From a virus: a DNA stretch of 64,000 nucleotides. The notes under the pieces are model-generated. The model saw nothing but the letters and a program-made list of their open reading frames with translations. It was not told the DNA's origin and ran no database searches. Positions 824 through 63,774 of the stretch are shown here, piece after piece. The position numbers were made by a program, and so were the translations under genes. Position 1 is the stretch's first letter. Each line of letters opens with the position of its first letter. The stretch covers positions 8,739 to 72,738 of the IMG/VR virus record IMGVR_UViG_3300032053_000049. One strand, written 5' to 3'.

Positions 824-3800
824 TTATTCATCTATTAGAATTTCTGGATCCATAATAGACTTGTTTCCATTGGTTTCCTTAATTAAATTTTTCTTTTCAC
901 TTCCCTTTTTTGACAGATAAGCATCTAGACTTTTGATTACATTTCCTTTTTTCATTGTAGCCACTCTTTTTTTATTCTCTTCCTTTTTCTTAGCCTCATC
1001 TATTGATAATGGAGATTTTTTAGAAAATTTATGAGTTATAGCACTACCAGGACGAGGTTTACTATTATTTTCTATATTTCCTAGAGGATCTTCTCCAAAC
1101 GGATAATCTGCTCTAGCATCTTTTTCTCCACTTTGATCACGGTTTCTTTTATATTCTTCTGAGTGATCATCATTACTTTCCTCTACAGGATTTTCTATTA
1201 CAACTTCTTTATCTTCATTTTTTTCAGTTTCCATAATTGGTGGGCCGCCTAGTCCTCCTAATTCTCCACCAGGACCACCCAATTCAGATCCACCGATTCC
1301 CCCACCGCCGACCAAACCTCCACCTCCACCTAGACCTCCACCTCCTAAACCTAAATCTCCTCCACCACCCATACCCGGTTGAGCGTTAGGATTTGGATTG
1401 ATCTTCTTGAACGGTTGAGCAGGATCATTACCTTCTTCCTCAATAGAACGAAAACGGTAAAGTTGCTTAGAATCATCCACAATTTCATCTCTAAGACCTT
1501 CAACATCGTCTTCTGATAAATTAAATACATTTTTATATACCCATTCCTTCGGAAAGAGTTTGATTTCCATCATACGAGAAGCAACCTCAACTTTATTACT
1601 CCAAACCTCAATCTTCTCTTTTTCAAAGATGGTCGATGGATTAGTAAGTTCTAGTTTAAAATTAACCAATGATTCATCCCTATATCCTTGGGCATATAAA
1701 TGAACTATAGCAATTTTTTCTAATTCAGAAATGAGGATTCTTTGAACACGTTGAATTGTACGAGCAAAGCGAACGTCTTCTGAATTATGTATTATAACTC
1801 CTGCCGAAGTAGCAAAATTATGATAATTTTTAATAGTTATATCACAAGTATCTCTTTTTTCAGATAACCGTTCAATTTTTATTACTTTATGATTTTTTAC
1901 ATATTTTTTAGAAAAATCTCTTATAGAGTTATAACCGTTTTCATAAATCAATTTATGTATATATGCTTTTCCACATTCCAGAGATTTGGATACTAATTTT
2001 GTATTATATCCATTTTCAGTAGAAAATTGAACTAAATCAATAAATGTTGGTAATGGGTTATTAAATCCTTTAGATTTCCTAAATGCTTCCACCATTAATG
2101 AAGATTTTTTATATTTTTTATTATTTTCTCTCAATAATTCTTTTCTATTACCACTATCTTTTTTCCATTTATTTTTACACATTTCAGACCATTCTATAGA
2201 ATTAAACTTATATTGAGCAAGATTTTTCTTTAACCGCTCTTTTTCCTCTGGATTATTATTTATATAATTTATTCTTTCTAAAGATTTTTTCTTTCTAAAC
2301 TCATCAGATTTTTTGTAAGCAATAGCTTCTGGAGAACAAAAAGTTTCATATGTATGATCTTTGTGAATATTTCTATGCTCAAGAAAAGTTAATCTTTTAA
2401 GATTTGGTGGGGAATTATCACTTCGCGAAAAATTATCATGGTGTACAATTACTAAATCATTTCTATTAAACTTAGTTTTATTTTTAATATGTGGTTGAAT
2501 AAGTTTTCCATTAATATGATCATCAATACGTTTATGAGTCCATTCCCATTTTTCCGTAGCAGGATTATAAATCTGTTCATAATCTGATTTTCCATACATT
2601 AATTTATTTCTCTTATATAATGGCATCAAAGATTGTCCTTCGGTAAGATCTTTCGCTTCAATCCATTTTCCATCTCTAGTCATAAAATTATGATCAGGAG
2701 TACAATCAATATATTCATTGTTATCAAGATGAACTCTAATAATATCAGTATTCATTCTTGTATAACCAGCCCATTCTATTTCTCCCGGAACAATATTTTT
2801 TGTGGTTTCATCTATAGAATATACATAATTTTTAATACCAATTTCATAATCTTTAATTAATTCTTCAACAGTCTTGGTTATTCCACTTAATAAAGGTATT
2901 TTTGTTTCAGGAACAATGCATGCAAGCGTGGCTTTTCCACTTAGCTCAGATTCGTACCCTAAAAAGGCCTTTGGTATCTTTAAAGCAGCCATCATTTTAT
3001 TACGAATGTATTCTACATCATCAATACCAGTCCATTCAATACCACTTAATGTTTCAATTGATGTTCCACTATCAGTACCACGAACTGGCAAATAAAAATC
3101 CTCAACCATATTTTGTAAATTAAATCGAAGATTATAATCACCTGTATTTTGATCTACATAAGGAACTTTTTTAGTTTTAGAAATCATTTTTTCCATAAAT
3201 GAATCAACATCTTGTGGAGGAATATTACCAATATCAATTTTGAAAATACGTCTTTCAGGAGCACGCATAATACGATTTATAAGCATCGCGTCTTCCAAAA
3301 GTGAATTATGTACAACCACGCCATTAGCAATAAAATTATGGTTATCTGATTCTACCATTATATCATAAACTGAAGAATTTTCTTCATAAGTTTCAATTGA
3401 TAAAATTCTCTCAAAATCTAAATCATATTCTTGATTAAAATTAATATATAATTTATATGTAGGGAATCTATGAATACCCAGTTCATCAATAGTTTCTTCT
3501 GGTTTATAACATTTTACTTCATTACACATTATTCCCGATTGTTGACATAAATGTTTTAATTGAGTAATCATTTCTTTATTAGATAAACCTATTACCGACC
3601 ATTTCCAAGAACCATCAGCATCAAATAATCCCTTTATAAATTCTTTCTTATTTTGTTTAGATAAATTAAATACCCATTCTGGAATTCTCTTATTTCTAAA
3701 TCCTGTTAAATAACCAGCGGTTTCCATTATGTATTTTAATTCTTTACTATAAGTTAAAGTACATCCTGGATGCGTATCATTATTTTTTGGATATGTTACG

Positions 3801-59500: not shown

Positions 59501-59590
59501 TGGCGGCAGATGAGGGATTCGAACTCTCGGTGGGTGTTAACCACTTCTGTTTTCGGGACAGGTGCTTTAAGCCATCTCAGCCAATCTGTC
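59501..59590 (-). tRNA. tRNA-Ser(CGA), atypical (C33, stem mismatches)
   Basis: GACAGAT acceptor, long variable arm, TTCGAAT T-loop, G73-CCA; anticodon loop CCCGAAA. Confidence 0.75.
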
Positions 59591-59605
59591 AATATAAAAA
59601 AATAA

Positions 59606-59771
59606 AGTGGCGAAACTTTTATACCTGTCAGAATTTCGTCCTTCACCATATCCACTGCTTTTGATTGTGGACTCCTTCTATGGTCTTCAACGAAACTTAA
59701 TCGTTTACTTATTTTTCATAGTTATCTTGGGTATAAAATACGTCAAGGATTTATTTTAGGTGTTCACCACT
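59606..59771 (-). ncRNA. Unidentified 166-nt rod-like structured RNA between two tRNAs
   Basis: Nested stems AGTGGTGAA/TTCGCCACT, TTTTATACC/GGTATAAAA, AGTTTCGTT/GACGAAATT, ACCATA/TATGGT, TCCAC/GTGGA; G-U wobbles favour the minus strand. Confidence 0.6.
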
Positions 59772-59775
59772 AAAT

Positions 59776-59849
59776 TGGCTGACTACTCACGATTTGAACG
59801 TGAACAAAAACTTTCAGAAAGTTTTATGCTACCATTACATCAGTAGTCA
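59776..59849 (-). tRNA. tRNA-Gln(CTG)
   Basis: TGACTAC/GTAGTCA acceptor, loop TTCTGAA, TTCAAAT T-loop, GCCA end. Confidence 0.85.
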
Positions 59850-59869
59850 ATTTTCTGTGTAAAATTTAA

Positions 59870-60013
59870 TTAAGCATCAATACCGGCTTTTTTCAAAATA
59901 GCCTTTGCTTCAGCCACACCGACTTCAACTTTCTTAGGATTTTTACGTCCAATAAGGATACCTGCTACAAATCCGGCTACTGCTACTAATACATAAATTC
60001 CAATTGTGATCAT
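59870..60013 (-). CDS. Small membrane protein (47 aa)
   Basis: MITIGIYVLVAVAGFVAGILIGRKNPKK... one TM plus basic tail. Confidence 0.6.
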   Translation of the reverse strand: MITIGIYVLVAVAGFVAGILIGRKNPKKVEVGVAEAKAILKKAGIDA

Positions 60014-60035
60014 ATTTTTTATCTTTCTTTAAAAA

Positions 60036-60113
60036 TGGTTGCGGAGGATGGGAGTTGAAACCATCGTGTACTCACGTTATGAGCATGAGAGCTTACCACT
60101 TGCTGACCCCGCA
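60036..60113 (-). tRNA. tRNA with CAT anticodon (Met or Ile2), enlarged T-loop
   Basis: TGCGGGG/CTCCGCA acceptor, TCATG-CTCATAA-CGTGA anticodon arm, ACCA end; TATTTATA immediately upstream. Confidence 0.75.
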
Positions 60114-60170
60114 ATTATAAATATAATATAAATAAAGAAAAAATCAAAAAGTAATATAGTTCTTCTTTTA

Positions 60171-60500
60171 TCATTGAATAGAGCCACTAACAAATGGAGC
60201 CGAAACAAATATAGGAATAGTTGTTTTTGTATCTATTACCGTTCCATCAGATTTTTTTTCTGATTCGGATAATTCTACTTTTTCTCCCCATATTCTTTGT
60301 CCTGCTTTAGCTGCGGCTAAACCCAATGTAATAGTAACAAGAGAACTATCAAAAGAAGTTAAAGTTTTATTTTTTATGGTTACGTATGTTAAATTAAAAC
60401 ATAATGTAAACATCCACAACCAAAACATAGCTCTCATAGTTGAGGCTCCTGTGTTATTGTCTTCAAAAAAACCAGAAAACCAAATAAATAATTTTTTCAT
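60171..60500 (-). CDS. Two-TM membrane protein (holin-like)
   Basis: Two hydrophobic segments, charged tail; near a permuted NlpC/P60 gene. Confidence 0.5.
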   Translation of the reverse strand: MKKLFIWFSGFFEDNNTGASTMRAMFWLWMFTLCFNLTYVTIKNKTLTSFDSSLVTITLGLAAAKAGQRIWGEKVELSESEKKSDGTVIDTKTTIPIFVSAPFVSGSIQ

Positions 60501-60530
60501 ATAGTTTGGAGGAAGGAAACCCCAACGGCT

Positions 60531-60710
60531 TTAGCCTTGGGGAGGAATTCCGACCATTCTCCATGAATTATACGTCAGAAACTTAATATCTGATGGTTTA
60601 GCGTTCTGACATAATCGCTTTCCATCTCTTAAATTATGCAAAGAAACTCTGTCTCTCAAAGTTCCACCCACATAACAAAAATTGTATTTTGCGTGTTTAT
60701 TTTCTATCAT
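60531..60710 (-). pseudogene. IsrB-like C-terminal fragment (59-aa open frame)
   Basis: MIENKHAKYNFCYVGGTLRDRVSLHNLRDGKRLCQNAKPSDIKFLTYNSWR matches the recalled C-terminus of RRXRR/IsrB proteins (KHPKYGLCYVGG...RISLH...GKRLCQNAK). Confidence 0.68.
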
Positions 60711-61365
60711 GGTTTTTAATCCTTTCTATCCACGATAAAAATTCATCGTAAGATTTGGTAAACTTCGCCCTATTACAATCCCAACAACAAGATACACAAT
60801 TAGATGAAACATATCCTATTTTATTATCTTTTCGGTCTATTCCGTTGTAAGTAAATCGTCCATTGGTTGTTTTATTTCCCGCCAATTGAGACGGTTTGCA
60901 TCCACAATAATAACAATCATCTAAAAATAGTTTTTTGGCATCATCTTTAGAAAAGTTAAATAGAATGCCTTTTGTTTCGGCTCGTTTCTTATATGATGTA
61001 TAAAGTTTATTAAATGAAGATATTCCTACGGGTAATTTGTTACTCGAAGAATGTGTTGGTTTGCATCCTTTATTACCACAACTTACTATATTACCTGATT
61101 TCAAGTGTTGAGCTAATATCGGTTTTATTTTTCCACATTCACATTTACATAACCAATATGTTCTTCCTTTTATTGGATTTTCCAAAGATAAAACGGTGAG
61201 TCTCCCATATTTTTTATTAGTTAAATCTTCTAATCTATGTGAAGCATCTCCAATATGTTTCGTGCTGCTACGCACAGTTGACTCAATTGCCTTCAAATGG
61301 CCGGTCTTGCGACCGACCTTGGCCACTCTAGTCTCTATTTTAACTTTTAATTTTGAACTTAGCAT
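60697..61365 (-). CDS. Phage-type HNH endonuclease with its start inside the omegaRNA
   Basis: DLTNKKYGRLTVL...WLCKCECG...SCG DNA-binding module; CYYC...NGIDRKDNKIGY..SNCVSCCWDCNRAK HNH. Confidence 0.82.
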   Translation of the reverse strand: MLSSKLKVKIETRVAKVGRKTGHLKAIESTVRSSTKHIGDASHRLEDLTNKKYGRLTVLSLENPIKGRTYWLCKCECGKIKPILAQHLKSGNIVSCGNKGCKPTHSSSNKLPVGISSFNKLYTSYKKRAETKGILFNFSKDDAKKLFLDDCYYCGCKPSQLAGNKTTNGRFTYNGIDRKDNKIGYVSSNCVSCCWDCNRAKFTKSYDEFLSWIERIKNHDRK

Positions 61366-61412
61366 GTTCTACTTTTTCAAGCCCCTATCCCTTTAGGGTA
61401 GGGGTTATTGAC
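61235..61412 (-). ncRNA. IsrB-type omegaRNA, 5' portion (apparently truncated)
   Basis: Terminal hairpin, GACTAG..TGGCCAAG, hairpin GGTCGGTC-GCAA-GACCGGCC, TTTGAAGGCAATTGA, GATGCTTCACATAG, then an abrupt switch to AT-rich HNH coding sequence. Confidence 0.65.
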
Positions 61413-62022
61413 CTTTCCAAGGTGTAAATATAACTTTGTCTTGAAAGAATTGTTGCGGATCTATGGAACTTAATTTTTTTAATAATGTTCCTTTTCCTTT
61501 ATATTCTGGTTGTTCATTCAAACAATATGCTGCTAATTCAGAACATATCATTCTATTTTTTTTATTAAAAAGATTTGTAAAAAATTCTTTACTTTTTCCT
61601 TTGGTTAAAACATCAAGAATTATACCTATGAAACTATTAGAAATAGTATGACCAATTAATAAAGTCCAATCATAAAGTTTACCAATTTTAGAATATGCCG
61701 TATCAATAATTCTTTTGCTAATATCATCATTTAACCCAACGGGTTTTCTAAAAAAAATATGATTATGTGGATCATTAAAATAATCTGTTAATAAAGAACG
61801 TTTTATTTTAGGAAAATTTGCTTCAACACATTCATTCGGACCAGTTACAATCAAAGTATGAGATATGGGTATATTTGGAACATCAGGATTTTGACCACGT
61901 TCCCAATTTGTAAACCACGATATACCAAGACTAATAAAACTTGAATCGTTATATATAAATCCTATAAATCCGTCTTTATAATTTACTCCATATTGAGGTT
62001 TTACTGATACAATAGTTGTCAT
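61405..62022 (-). CDS. Permuted papain-like NlpC/P60 (YiiX/YaeF-like) hydrolase
   Basis: SHTLIV (His), YDW, ICSELAA (Cys after His); its stop codon lies within the IS end. Confidence 0.75.
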   Translation of the reverse strand: MTTIVSVKPQYGVNYKDGFIGFIYNDSSFISLGISWFTNWERGQNPDVPNIPISHTLIVTGPNECVEANFPKIKRSLLTDYFNDPHNHIFFRKPVGLNDDISKRIIDTAYSKIGKLYDWTLLIGHTISNSFIGIILDVLTKGKSKEFFTNLFNKKNRMICSELAAYCLNEQPEYKGKGTLLKKLSSIDPQQFFQDKVIFTPWKGQ

Positions 62023-62037
62023 ATTTGAATTTTTAAT

Positions 62038-62415
62038 TCACGGCCCTACCGTGACTGTCGTATTAAATATAGTTAAATCGGTTGGAGCATTGGTTGGTGC
62101 TAATTTAGGAATACTATCTGAATTAGAAAAATCAGATTCTCCAATGGTATTCTTTGCTTTAACTTTAAAAGATAATTGTTTTGTTACACCAGGAGTGATA
62201 GGAACTCTTACCATTGTCGCGTTGGTAGTAGCAGATACTGTTATTGCCGATTGAAAATTTACACTTCCATCACGAGCATAATACACCACAAAATTACTTA
62301 CCAAATTAGTTGGAGATATATTATAATTCCATCTTACCCACACATCGAGATATGTTGCTGAGAAAGCGGTTACACAAAATAATGACATTAAAACTGTTGC
62401 AATAATCTTTTTCAT
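62038..62415 (-). CDS. Secreted single FN3-like domain protein
   Basis: Signal peptide MKKIIA...AFSA; VRWN, FVVYY, FKVKAKN..GESDFSN. Confidence 0.7.
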   Translation of the reverse strand: MKKIIATVLMSLFCVTAFSATYLDVWVRWNYNISPTNLVSNFVVYYARDGSVNFQSAITVSATTNATMVRVPITPGVTKQLSFKVKAKNTIGESDFSNSDSIPKLAPTNAPTDLTIFNTTVTVGP

Positions 62416-62432
62416 ATATTAATAAATATTGT

Positions 62433-63095
62433 TTATTTTACTATGTATTCGACTTTTGTTATACTAAATTCAGTTGGAGTAGGTAAATTATTATTAGAAA
62501 CACTTACTAAAAAACTTGTGCTGCTTGCTTTCATACCGTCGCTGACGTTGACCGTCATCAGGGTTTGGCCCACCGAATTCGTGGATGGTCGCACGATAAT
62601 AGTACGGTTCGCCCCACTACCACCCAAAACAATATTCTCATTTGGAATCAATGCGGTATTCGCAGCGGTGGCGGATACATTTAAGTTTACCGCCGGCGTT
62701 TCCGCGTCACCAATTGTGAATGGAAGTGTAATTGTATCATTCCCCCACATAATTACGTTGGATATAGCCGTTATCGTGGGAAAACTGTTGGTTAAATCGG
62801 ACGGAATCGAGGTGCTAACCTCATTGGAGTAGTCGCTTTCCAGGCCGTAGCTGTTGGTTGCAGTGACGGCAAAGTAATAAGTGAGCCCTGCCTGCAAACC
62901 ATTCACGGTCGCTCGGGTGACATTGCCAACGTTCGTGTGGTATGGGTAGTTCCGACTGGCATTTCCGTAATACACAATCGCACCCGTAACCTCGGGATCC
63001 GTGCTGGGATCCCAAGCCAGGGTGACGCTTTGGTCTGCTAATGTTATAGAAGCAAATAACATTAAACCAACTAAAAACAATTTATTAAATTTCAT
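62433..63095 (-). CDS. Secreted FN3 plus cadherin/Ig-like domain protein, GC-rich
   Basis: Signal peptide; SVTLAWDPS...YYFAVTATN..GLESDYSNEV; PFTIGDAET...VNVSDG. Confidence 0.8.
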   Translation of the reverse strand: MKFNKLFLVGLMLFASITLADQSVTLAWDPSTDPEVTGAIVYYGNASRNYPYHTNVGNVTRATVNGLQAGLTYYFAVTATNSYGLESDYSNEVSTSIPSDLTNSFPTITAISNVIMWGNDTITLPFTIGDAETPAVNLNVSATAANTALIPNENIVLGGSGANRTIIVRPSTNSVGQTLMTVNVSDGMKASSTSFLVSVSNNNLPTPTEFSITKVEYIVK

Positions 63096-63282
63096 CTATA
63101 TAAACTTTTATTTTTCCAGATTGTATTAAAATATCATACCATCTGCCACATTTAGAACACAGAGCAACATATCTGTATATTCGTCTTTTAAGTTGTTCTA
63201 AAGTTATTTTATTTTTGGTCTTCTTATTACAATACGGACACTGACTAACCACCCAATCCGGCGGTTTTTCCAAATTATTCAT
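63085..63282 (-). CDS. Small Zn-ribbon protein
   Basis: CPYC and CSKC pairs. Confidence 0.55.
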   Translation of the reverse strand: MNNLEKPPDWVVSQCPYCNKKTKNKITLEQLKRRIYRYVALCSKCGRWYDILIQSGKIKVYIDEI

Positions 63283-63291
63283 ATTTAAAAC

Positions 63292-63366
63292 TGGTGGGTA
63301 ATATAGGACTTGAACCTATGGTCTTCCGGATGTAAACCGAACGTTTTTCCTCTAAACTAATCACCC
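63292..63366 (-). tRNA. tRNA-Val(TAC)
   Basis: GGGTGAT/ATTACCC acceptor, TTCGG-TTTACAT-CCGGA, TTCAAGT T-loop, ACCA. Confidence 0.9.
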
Positions 63367-63367
63367 A

Positions 63368-63622
63368 TTAAATTGTTTGTCCATCTATTTGGGAAGCCAC
63401 ATCTTCCGGTGCAATACCACGAACTAAAGCCGTATTCGTTATAAGATTTCTTTCCCAACATTTAATTTCAATAGAATTTATTTCTTTATTAGATAATGTG
63501 GTTCTCTTTTTAATTAATTGTTTAACACTATTTTTGTGTTGTTTCCACTCAACAAGGCCTTTGACCTTTTTATCCTTATTTTTCCAATCTGATTTATTGG
63601 ATATGTATAGAATAAATTTCAT
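63368..63622 (-). CDS. Hypothetical protein
   Basis: 84-aa ORF with TTGACA-16-TATACT and TACTTAT upstream. Confidence 0.55.
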   Translation of the reverse strand: MKFILYISNKSDWKNKDKKVKGLVEWKQHKNSVKQLIKKRTTLSNKEINSIEIKCWERNLITNTALVRGIAPEDVASQIDGQTI

Positions 63623-63698
63623 AATGTTTATCTTTAGAATATAAGTATAACATAGAAAAAGTAAATGTCAACCACAAATTGTATACTTATTTTAATCT

Positions 63699-63774
63699 TG
63701 GTCGGGGTAGTGCGATTTTCACACACGATCTTCCGGACCCAAACCGGACGCTCTAAATACTAAGCCATACCCCG
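63699..63774 (-). tRNA. tRNA-Pro(TGG), non-canonical T-loop
   Basis: CGGGGTA/TACCCCG acceptor, TCCGG-TTTGGGT-CCGGA, T-loop TGAAAAT, ACCA. Confidence 0.85.

Follow-up and report, generated by a model that had tools for sequence, protein, structure and literature searches.

Results

Architecture of the locus

The stretch of DNA analysed here, called the window throughout, comprises 64,000 nucleotides (nt) of the IMG/VR virus record IMGVR_UViG_3300032053_000049 (positions 8,739-72,738), and all coordinates refer to it. Between positions 60501 and 61412 lies an element of 912 bp, read on the minus strand from 61412 to 60501, which is probably a non-autonomous member of the IS200/IS605 family of insertion sequences (IS), of the IsrB (ISC1/OMEGA) type, whose interior has been swapped for a phage HNH endonuclease gene. 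In the direction of reading, the element consists of a transposon right end, the 5' part of an IsrB-type omegaRNA gene, an open reading frame (ORF) of 222 codons that begins inside this RNA gene and continues into the HNH endonuclease, a remnant of the IsrB C-terminus and a transposon left end, beyond which lies a transposon-adjacent motif (TAM) (Table 1). This anatomy is established with high confidence. The parent record is 72,738 bases long and 21% complete by CheckV; if this estimate holds, the host of the element is a large phage of roughly 350 kb. Its guanine plus cytosine (GC) content is about 30% (29.8% for the window) and the genes around the element also lie on the minus strand.

Table 1. 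Features of the element and of its flanks, in window positions unless a locus is named
Feature	Position	Strand	Remarks
Flank 5' of the omegaRNA scaffold	61413..61432	-	Where an IsrB guide would be read, judging from position only; also last codons of the upstream gene
Transposon right end (bottom strand)	61375..61412	-	Subterminal hairpin 61382-61404; gives TAA (61405-61407) to the upstream gene
5' 175 nt of the IsrB-type omegaRNA gene	61238..61412	-	Matches IsrB loci L014-L016 (blastn); cut inside a conserved hairpin
Chimeric ORF, 222 aa	60697..61365	-	IsrB leader codons 1-42, junction codon 43, phage HNH endonuclease to the stop
Leader, codons 1-42	61240..61365	-	omegaRNA-derived DNA; ATG and frame are those open into IsrB in L014-L016
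HNH-derived segment	60700..61237	-	One zinc-ribbon repeat and beta-beta-alpha-Me nuclease; 30.5% GC
59-codon frame	60531..60710	-	Codons 5-59 (60698-60534) are the IsrB C-terminal remnant; ATG within the last HNH codons
Transposon left end	60501..60560	-	Hairpin 60520-60542; encodes the last IsrB residues and stop
ATGAA (TTCAT on the + strand), TAM	60496..60500	-	Contains the start codon (ATG) of the downstream gene
Upstream phage gene, 205 aa	61405..62022	-	Co-directional with the element, which supplies its last two codons and stop
Downstream phage gene, 109 aa	60171..60500	-	Start is the ATG of the TAM
64-codon leader in IsrB loci	L014:669-860(-), L015:3748-3939(+), L016:2826-3017(-), L018 ~1291-1500(+)		

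The shell derives from an IsrB element

A 21-mer situated just inside the RNA region retrieves three metagenome loci (L014, L015 and L016), and all three carry IsrB. The stretch 61412-61238 (175 nt) is 96.6%, 93.3% and 91.5% identical by blastn to the sequences upstream of the true IsrB genes of L016, L014 and L015, respectively, which continue past the point, at about 178 nt, where the window diverges. An earlier note on this DNA had seen here about 180 nt of omegaRNA-like sequence of the IsrB type, and this is borne out. The nearest natural relative is L016, a 1275-nt element with a 399-codon IsrB frame and ATGAA after its end. The product of this gene matches Pfam RRXRR (E 7e-38) and contains no HNH domain; its best solved relative is the IsrB structure 8DMB (E 8e-32, residues 64-387), the IscB chains matching its N-terminal part only.

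The other extremity of the element tells the same parentage. L016 also aligns to window 60698-60470 at 78%, and in the 59-codon frame, residues 5-59 share 39 of 55 positions (71%, E 1e-29) with residues 345-399 of the L016 IsrB, a region that the alignment with 8DMB places in the C-terminal TAM-interacting (TI) part of the protein. The frame overlapping the HNH stop is therefore what the earlier note had taken it for, and the comparison with IsrB by which it proposed to check this gave a clear match. The dN/dS ratio (non-synonymous to synonymous substitution rates) of this tail relative to L016 is 0.17. Taken alone, the 59-aa frame finds no match in Pfam, PHROG, NCBIfam or the PDB, so that its identity is seen only through the comparison with L016 IsrB. 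When the phage record is searched with this IsrB, two pieces only are recovered, residues 1-43 (93% identity) and 337-399 (65%), with no RRXRR hit; PLMP, RuvC I-III, a bridge helix and the TI domain make up an OMEGA IsrB protein, and the window encodes the leader and the last part only.

In L014-L016, an ATG located 48 nt inside the element opens a stop-free frame that runs through the rest of the omegaRNA gene into IsrB, thereby forming a 64-codon leader. No other canonical start precedes the PLMP core in frame in these loci, and gene callers predict IsrBs of 399-400 aa that take in the leader. A diverged relative, L018, has an analogous layout, while in L017, L019 and L020 the ATG stands right at the IsrB core. 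Among the IsrB loci, 5-6 non-synonymous codon differences in the leader face 2-5 synonymous ones, that is, there is no synonymous excess and no protein-level constraint, and a second reading frame is likewise open over most of the RNA region.

For DtIsrB, the TAM is NTGA/TTGA and the guide is 20 nt long, according to the sections of PMC9581776 that describe them. In the part of the IscB study that deals with these points (10.1101/2023.03.14.532601), the omegaRNA is described as a scaffold from the transposon right end plus a 5' guide encoded outside the element, its transcription must therefore start outside the element, and the elements are preferentially oriented with the upstream gene. The scaffold origin, the outside transcription and the co-orientation all fit the locus described here.

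The omegaRNA is truncated

A consensus structure was computed with RNAalifold from five IsrB loci (L014, L015, L016, L018 and L020); it is pseudoknot-free and derived from those same sequences. It contains 56 pairs in 10 helices, with 96.2% of cells paired and 28 pairs showing changes on both sides, a count reached by none of 500 shuffles and falling to 2-5 pairs when the partners are slid. The resemblance of the window to the IsrB RNAs ends after ...GATGCTTCACA (alignment column 179), so that the 175 nt retained represent about 73% of the 239-nt stretch that separates the end from the IsrB core in the parents. Helices 2-6 and 8 are kept (34 of the 56 pairs), among them the terminal hairpin and a GNRA hairpin at 61301-61320 in which L014 has a compensatory change from G-C to A-U. 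Missing are the 3' strands of helices 1, 7, 9 and 10 (22 pairs, 12 of them double-changed), together with everything 3' of them; three of these four broken helices covary. The scaffold beside the right end is thus incomplete. An exact 20-mer of the GNRA hairpin occurs nowhere in the viral contigs.

The DtIsrB scaffold measures 262 nt, and mutations that break its pseudoknot base pairs abolish nicking, as described in the relevant part of the work of Hirano et al. (PMC9581776). From these mutants and from the lost helix strands, we infer that the remnant RNA is not a working guide scaffold.

The check with the Rfam HEARO covariance model (RF02033), also proposed in the earlier note, was run and turned out to be undecisive. 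The window scores 21 bits (E 0.18) for a gathering score of 83, and the true IsrB loci score much the same (23 for L016, 22.3 for L015). As a TnpB-type locus (L008, 23.5) and a solo end (L007, 24.5) score alike, the value decides nothing, and the hits owe most of their score to the 5' end that these loci share, chiefly to its terminal hairpin.

The insert is a phage HNH endonuclease fused in frame

The 222-aa product of ORF 61365-60697 matches PHROG 1035 (E 1.5e-17), 374 (E 1.5e-14) and 3322 (E 3.4e-14), over residues 32-220 at most. Its 172 homologues cover about 78% of the query, from residue 45 or so to residue 222, and in a 20-sequence alignment (the window protein and 19 homologues) all 21 invariant columns are kept in the window protein. 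The AlphaFold2 model has block means (10 residues) of the predicted local distance difference test (pLDDT) of 73-98 over residues 45-222, except for 53 at 101-110, and values below 50 over most of residues 1-42. The predicted HNH fold is nearest to PacI (structural E 7.7e-4, profile E 9e-7); the profile of the family matches PacI and Gme HNH and no IscB chain at E<=1. The protein possesses the Cys4, Asp-Arg, Asn and Lys columns and the beta-beta-alpha-Me fold of this phage family. It hits no Pfam family at E<=1, hence neither PLMP/RRXRR nor PF01844, the features of the IscB/IshB proteins. The earlier note was therefore right in calling the HNH phage-type, unrelated to IscB and devoid of a PLMP domain. 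The HNH ORF looks intact, as far as conservation tells.

At its N-terminal side, the HNH continues in frame from codons 1-42 of the IsrB reading frame, whose ATG it would use; this leader is 93% identical to IsrB residues 1-43. Short homologues begin 3-6 residues ahead of a DLTG.K.GRLTV motif, and the HNH-derived part offers no further in-frame ATG, GTG or TTG before the conserved YGRLTV motif. Whichever start is used, it sits in omegaRNA-derived DNA. According to the earlier note, the RNA scaffold encodes the first ~44 codons, with no other Met available, and this holds for codons 1-42; they are not arbitrary RNA read as protein, since in the parents this ATG opens an uninterrupted frame into IsrB. 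Among the longer relatives of the HNH (10 scanned with Pfam, 5 read), the additional parts are zinc-ribbon repeats or helix-turn-helix domains, and none is an OMEGA domain. The HNH has one related locus only in the viral contigs (40% identity). A distant blastn search of phage GenBank records gave no match.

On the 5' side, the parent is left at 61238/61237, inside codon 43; on the 3' side, the IsrB sequence resumes at 60704-60698, in the stop or the final three codons of the HNH. The parent thereby lost about 904 nt, namely the 3' third of the omegaRNA and IsrB codons ~43-344, and received 539 nt, which are nearly exactly the HNH coding sequence minus its first codons: the insert spans the free-standing gene from about its second or third codon to the stop. 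The GC content of the insert is 30.5%, near that of the window (29.8%), and those of the RNA part and of the IsrB tail plus end are higher (43.4% and 38.7%), which marks the insert as phage-like and the shell as foreign. Together with the anatomy, these homologies and breakpoints are the solid part of our account. A promoter and terminator scan, with 4 promoter-like sites for 6.5 expected from shuffles and no terminator, is uninformative.

Transposon ends and their relatives

The terminal hairpin (61382-61404) has the stem CCCCTACCC/GGGATAGGGG and the loop TAAA, and a second hairpin lies at 60520-60542. As announced in the earlier note, these are subterminal imperfect hairpins of the IS200/IS605 type, present at both ends and common to other copies (11 viral loci and L014-L016). 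The end motif 61412-61381 consists of GTCAA and a hairpin of the form CCCC..CCC/TAAA/GGG...GGGG; the window contains it a single time, and none of 100 shuffles does. A degenerate form of it is found in 11 viral-contig stretches, and the motif also recurs in 25 genome-contig stretches. The right end (61412-61375) is 94.7-97.5% identical over 35-40 nt to all 11 viral-contig loci, and the left end (60560-60492) is 91.0-95.4% identical over 65-69 nt to the TnpB-type loci L002/3, L008, L010 and L012. Both hairpins covary, the right one at 7 of 9 pairs between loci, the left one by compensatory stem changes in L016 and L010.

The ATGA reported by the earlier note just 3' of the element is confirmed as an ATGAA at 60500-60496, and the same motif borders this end in the TnpB-type loci L002, L008, L010 and L012 and in the IsrB locus L016; L017 and L020 show ATGA, L018 does not. 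In the window as in L016 (oriented 2261-2265), the downstream gene begins with this ATGAA (Met-Lys), which indicates that this IS family lands exactly before ATGAA starts and leaves the gene unbroken.

In L002/L003, L005, L008, L010, L011 and L012, a TnpB-like frame lies on the opposite strand relative to the end motif. The complete non-redundant TnpB-type elements (L002, L008, L010, L012) measure about 1.32-1.34 kb, with stop-to-stop frames of 398-417 codons; L011 combines a 402-codon TnpB-like frame with a Y1 transposase and is an autonomous relative, and L005 is cut short. The ends of one IS family are thus combined with TnpB on one strand or with IsrB on the opposite one. The TnpB frames of L002-L012 contain SQ.DH(R/M)(T)G...DAD.NAA, lack the usual zinc-finger Cys pairs and are open into the end hairpin. 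Near the left end of L008 and L002, a promoter-like site (TTGACA-17 nt-TAGAAT/TAGGAT, noted by eye) points outward through the left-end hairpin, on the strand opposite TnpB. Four of the motif-bearing stretches among L002-L012 belong to one viral contig of 368,758 bases and three to a contig of 83,928 bases.

The 25 genome-contig stretches (L023-L047) come from four metagenome-assembled genomes (MAGs): Thermodesulfobacteriota (14), Desulfocicer sp. (7), 'uncultured delta proteobacterium' (2) and Clostridiaceae (2). Most of them lie at contig ends, and 21 of the 25 have less than 400 nt after the end, so that their cargo is not classable. Among the 25, L029 and L042 have unrelated genes behind an IscB/IsrB-like omegaRNA, L030 is an apparent mini-element of about 330 nt with both ends, and L036 has an IscB/IsrB-like frame of 426 codons.

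In the phage itself, no Y1 (HUH) TnpA is found in the element or, at E<=10, in the 72.7-kb record, estimated at 21% completeness; likewise, this fragment contains no TnpB remnant (E<=10), no second IsrB and no second HNH.

Occurrence of the chimera

The earlier note had suggested a search for the same junction at other loci or phages. None was found in the metagenome, viral-contig and protein collections: the three metagenome loci retrieved by the 21-mer are all IsrB loci, no viral locus was retrieved, and the omegaRNA/HNH junction is found only in this phage. The record of the window itself may be excluded from the two 21-mer scans. In a set of 5.8 billion proteins, five bear the leader, four of them RRXRR/IsrB proteins and the fifth this chimera. 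The exact 222-aa chimera is present on three contigs (JGI, Logan and ENA), and a fourth contig carries a variant with one conservative replacement, I183M.

Parts of the stretch occur in 19 sediment runs, seven of which contain half or more of its words; one of these runs may be the source of the record, and the runs may belong to one campaign. Contigs of four runs (X2, X5, X6, X7) bridge one or more of the joints: X2 and X6 connect both the left and the right end with their flanks, and Logan contigs of X5 (60561-750) and X7 (60554-764) cross the HNH/IsrB-tail junction. These contigs are low-depth unitigs with holes, in which the lack of a joint across the element says nothing on absence. Loose contig ends at 60494-60559 and 61376/61416 show IS ends entering other contexts within the same samples. 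A contig of run X5 matches the window from 61332 toward the right end and differs in its interior; it is a variant sharing only the end and about 80 nt.

Neighbouring genes

According to the earlier note, the element gives the stop codon to an 'NlpC/P60' gene and abuts the ATG of the next gene. The TAA and the ATG (position 60500) are as described; the family label comes down to a sub-threshold match of the upstream gene to Pfam Peptidase_C92 (E 0.0018, 18.8 bits for a cut-off of 27). The PHROG 1128 match of this gene carries the annotation enoyl-CoA hydratase/carnithine racemase-like. The downstream gene has no family match below E 0.1 in Pfam, PHROG or NCBIfam. The empty allele is predicted to read ...CCTTGGAAAG followed directly by ATGAAAAAA...; if this is right, the insertion exchanged the last 12 codons of the upstream gene for 2. 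The search for such an allele, another suggestion of the earlier note, brought none to light in viral or metagenome contigs, and neither neighbouring gene has relatives in these two collections. Five tRNA genes (Ser-cga, Gln-ctg, Met-cat, Val-tac and Pro-tgg) lie at 59501-63774 among the small phage genes around the element.

Discussion

A model for the origin of the chimera

The history we propose starts with the landing of an IsrB element before an ATGAA start codon, between two co-directional genes of a large phage. Later, a phage HNH gene would have taken the place of about 0.9 kb of its interior, in the reading frame of the ATG located 48 nt inside the element. The HNH would since be produced as a fusion to a 42-residue leader predicted to be disordered, its transcription reading in from the upstream phage gene, as IscB/IsrB omegaRNAs require. 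The truncated RNA and the 55-codon IsrB tail would be relics; in the case of the RNA, four of the ten predicted helices cannot form and no IsrB is left in the element to bind it, which points to a non-functional molecule. The two ends recognised by TnpA are intact, so that a Y1 transposase acting in trans could still mobilise the element. Its likely present behaviour would be that of a fixed-locus HNH cassette, acting as a homing-type or phage-competition nuclease. On this sequence evidence, an IsrB element whose interior was replaced afterwards appears to be the most likely history. What remains today is most likely a transposon shell that houses an HNH cassette next to relics of the RNA and of IsrB. 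As the junction is seen only in this phage, the locus looks like a one-off natural nuclease swap and not like a new RNA-guided system.

Several points weigh against this account. None of the Logan pieces listed bridges the 5' junction (61237/8). No empty allele and no HNH-free version of the locus was found, and the order of events, IS insertion first and swap later, is a deduction to that extent. The collections were searched by near-exact words, a procedure by which diverged copies of the chimera could be missed. A swap that is in frame and nearly ORF-precise is more orderly than what random deletion and insertion usually give, and this orderliness hints at selection for expression, perhaps at a composite function. 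The activity of the HNH would follow from conservation only; apart from its own cluster, it has no close relatives (>44% identity) with which selection on this copy could be measured. Finally, an intact IsrB, TnpB or TnpA may lie elsewhere in the genome, of which the record covers 21%.

The earlier note had hesitated between a composite selfish element and a dead chimera; the evidence leans to a one-off chimera, with an HNH ORF that itself looks intact. A functional composite element, in which the protein-guided HNH would take over from IsrB the role of keeping the transposon, is unlikely. Such an element would cut the HNH-free/IS-free allele in co-infecting phages (non-restorative homing) or intact IsrB elements, and TnpA in trans would move its shell. 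Both ends are indeed intact (91-97% identity), the HNH ORF is intact with 21/21 invariant columns, its fusion to the element's own start is in frame, with breakpoints only a few nt away from the ends of the ORF, several sediment assemblies contain the chimera, and the IS family is active in the same samples, where loose ends at both IS boundaries enter other contexts. On the other hand, one locus only was found, with no second copy in the 72.7 kb and no TnpA in the fragment, and a protein-guided nuclease cannot retarget after each transposition, following the argument in section 6.3 of PMC13565253. We regard as similarly doubtful that an HNH homing endonuclease displaced the RNA-guided nickase in a still intact OMEGA shell, in which TnpA mobility and HNH homing would be combined and the 5' domain of the RNA would serve as a leader or regulator. 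It also seems improbable that the chimera is wholly dead, the HNH ORF being a recent relic, unexpressed or inactive, that has not yet decayed. The junction is unique, the native start codon of the HNH is gone and the promoter-like sites do not exceed the shuffle expectation (4 versus a mean of 6.5). Moreover, the IsrB tail is still open and can hardly function, so that an open frame at this locus is no proof of selection. Nevertheless, a relic would have to preserve a 222-codon open frame in DNA of 30% GC, every invariant residue of the HNH family and an in-frame join to the ATG, and the sole variant seen differs by one conservative residue, I183M.

Could the HNH have become associated with the RNA? 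The 5' domain of the omegaRNA, perhaps with the leader peptide, would then guide or scaffold the HNH and constitute a new RNA-guided nuclease. The five complete helices kept in the RNA, the position where a guide would be read and a leader co-linear with the retained RNA speak for this idea. It is nonetheless very improbable: the HNH family is widespread without such an RNA (172 homologues, of which 10 longer ones were scanned and 5 of these read), PLMP, RuvC and most of the TI domain are gone, the leader shows no protein-level constraint and a pLDDT below 50, and four helices are broken, three of them covarying. Even less credence can be given to a TnpB-type element considered on the wrong strand, in which the 'omegaRNA' would be the antisense of a TnpB right-end RNA (reRNA) ending at 61412 on the + strand. 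The same ends do carry an opposite-strand TnpB in L002/3, L005, L008, L010, L011 and L012, and weak HEARO hits occur at TnpB-type ends too, but past its first 35 nt the window does not align with the TnpB-type elements. Given the 91.5-96.6% identity to IsrB loci and a record devoid of any TnpB remnant at E<=10, we rejected the antisense reRNA. Hardly any weight falls, in the same way, on the idea that an IsrB element and an HNH gene were joined by the assembly. IS ends are repeats of the kind that break assemblies; yet the identical 222-aa ORF is found on three contigs (JGI, Logan, ENA), next to a one-residue variant, and independent contigs of X5 and X7 bridge the 3' junction.

Comparison with known systems

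The one-off swap proposed here shares with the IsrB OMEGA elements (ISC1; DtIsrB, 8DMB; L016) both ends, the ATGA(A) and the co-orientation with the upstream gene, and with L016 in particular the initial 175 nt of the omegaRNA (96.6%), the codon at which the IsrB frame starts and the 55 codons with which it ends. It differs from them by the absence of PLMP, bridge helix and RuvC, by a TI domain reduced to its last part, by an omegaRNA without its 3' third and by the foreign HNH ORF. With respect to the free-standing phage HNHs (YGRLTV/zinc-ribbon, with the fold of PacI, 3LDY), residues 45-222 are full length and retain the invariant Cys, Asp-Arg, Asn and Lys, whereas the native start has been replaced by a 42-residue transposon leader and the gene sits between IS ends. 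An IshB protein is defined as PLMP plus HNH. An HNH next to a HEARO-like 5' hairpin recalls IscB/IshB, but the window HNH is not of the IscB type (no PF01844/RRXRR, no IscB chain at E<=1) and the likeness is a coincidental fit of name.

The element also resembles the non-autonomous IS200/IS605 derivatives and the palindrome-associated transposable elements (PATEs) presented in a section of Meers et al. (10.1101/2023.03.14.532601), with conserved ends, no transposase, TnpA acting in trans and deleted interiors. The PATEs described there are devoid of protein-coding genes, unlike the window element, which contains a complete foreign ORF of 222 codons. In the IS family of the window itself, omegaRNA-only relatives are seen in the Thermodesulfobacteriota MAG contigs L029, L030 and L042. 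The IStrons, in which a group I intron is combined with an IS605-family element (PMC4227781), are another natural chimera of an IS200/IS605-type shell with a different selfish element. Their partner is a ribozyme that splices the insertion out, whereas the partner in the window is a protein nuclease that replaces an RNA-guided one. No report of an IsrB or IscB element with a swapped-in HNH or homing endonuclease was found in the literature searched. The swap is seen at one locus.

Significance

We infer that the chimeric frame is expressed, that its HNH is active, that the RNA is not and that the element could be mobilised. Whatever its present activity, the locus shows that the nuclease module of an OMEGA element is exchangeable in nature for a protein-guided HNH, the ends, the start codon and the frame being kept. 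If the HNH is dead, the locus is merely another decayed IS. If it is active, it reveals a path from a transposon to a phage-borne homing cassette with a fixed locus. On the current view, OMEGA elements depend on an RNA-guided nuclease because their target changes at every transposition (PMC13565253, in its section 6.3). Could a protein-guided enzyme sustain such an element all the same? If a working composite were true, nature would provide an exception to the view that IS200/IS605 elements are served by RNA-guided nucleases only.

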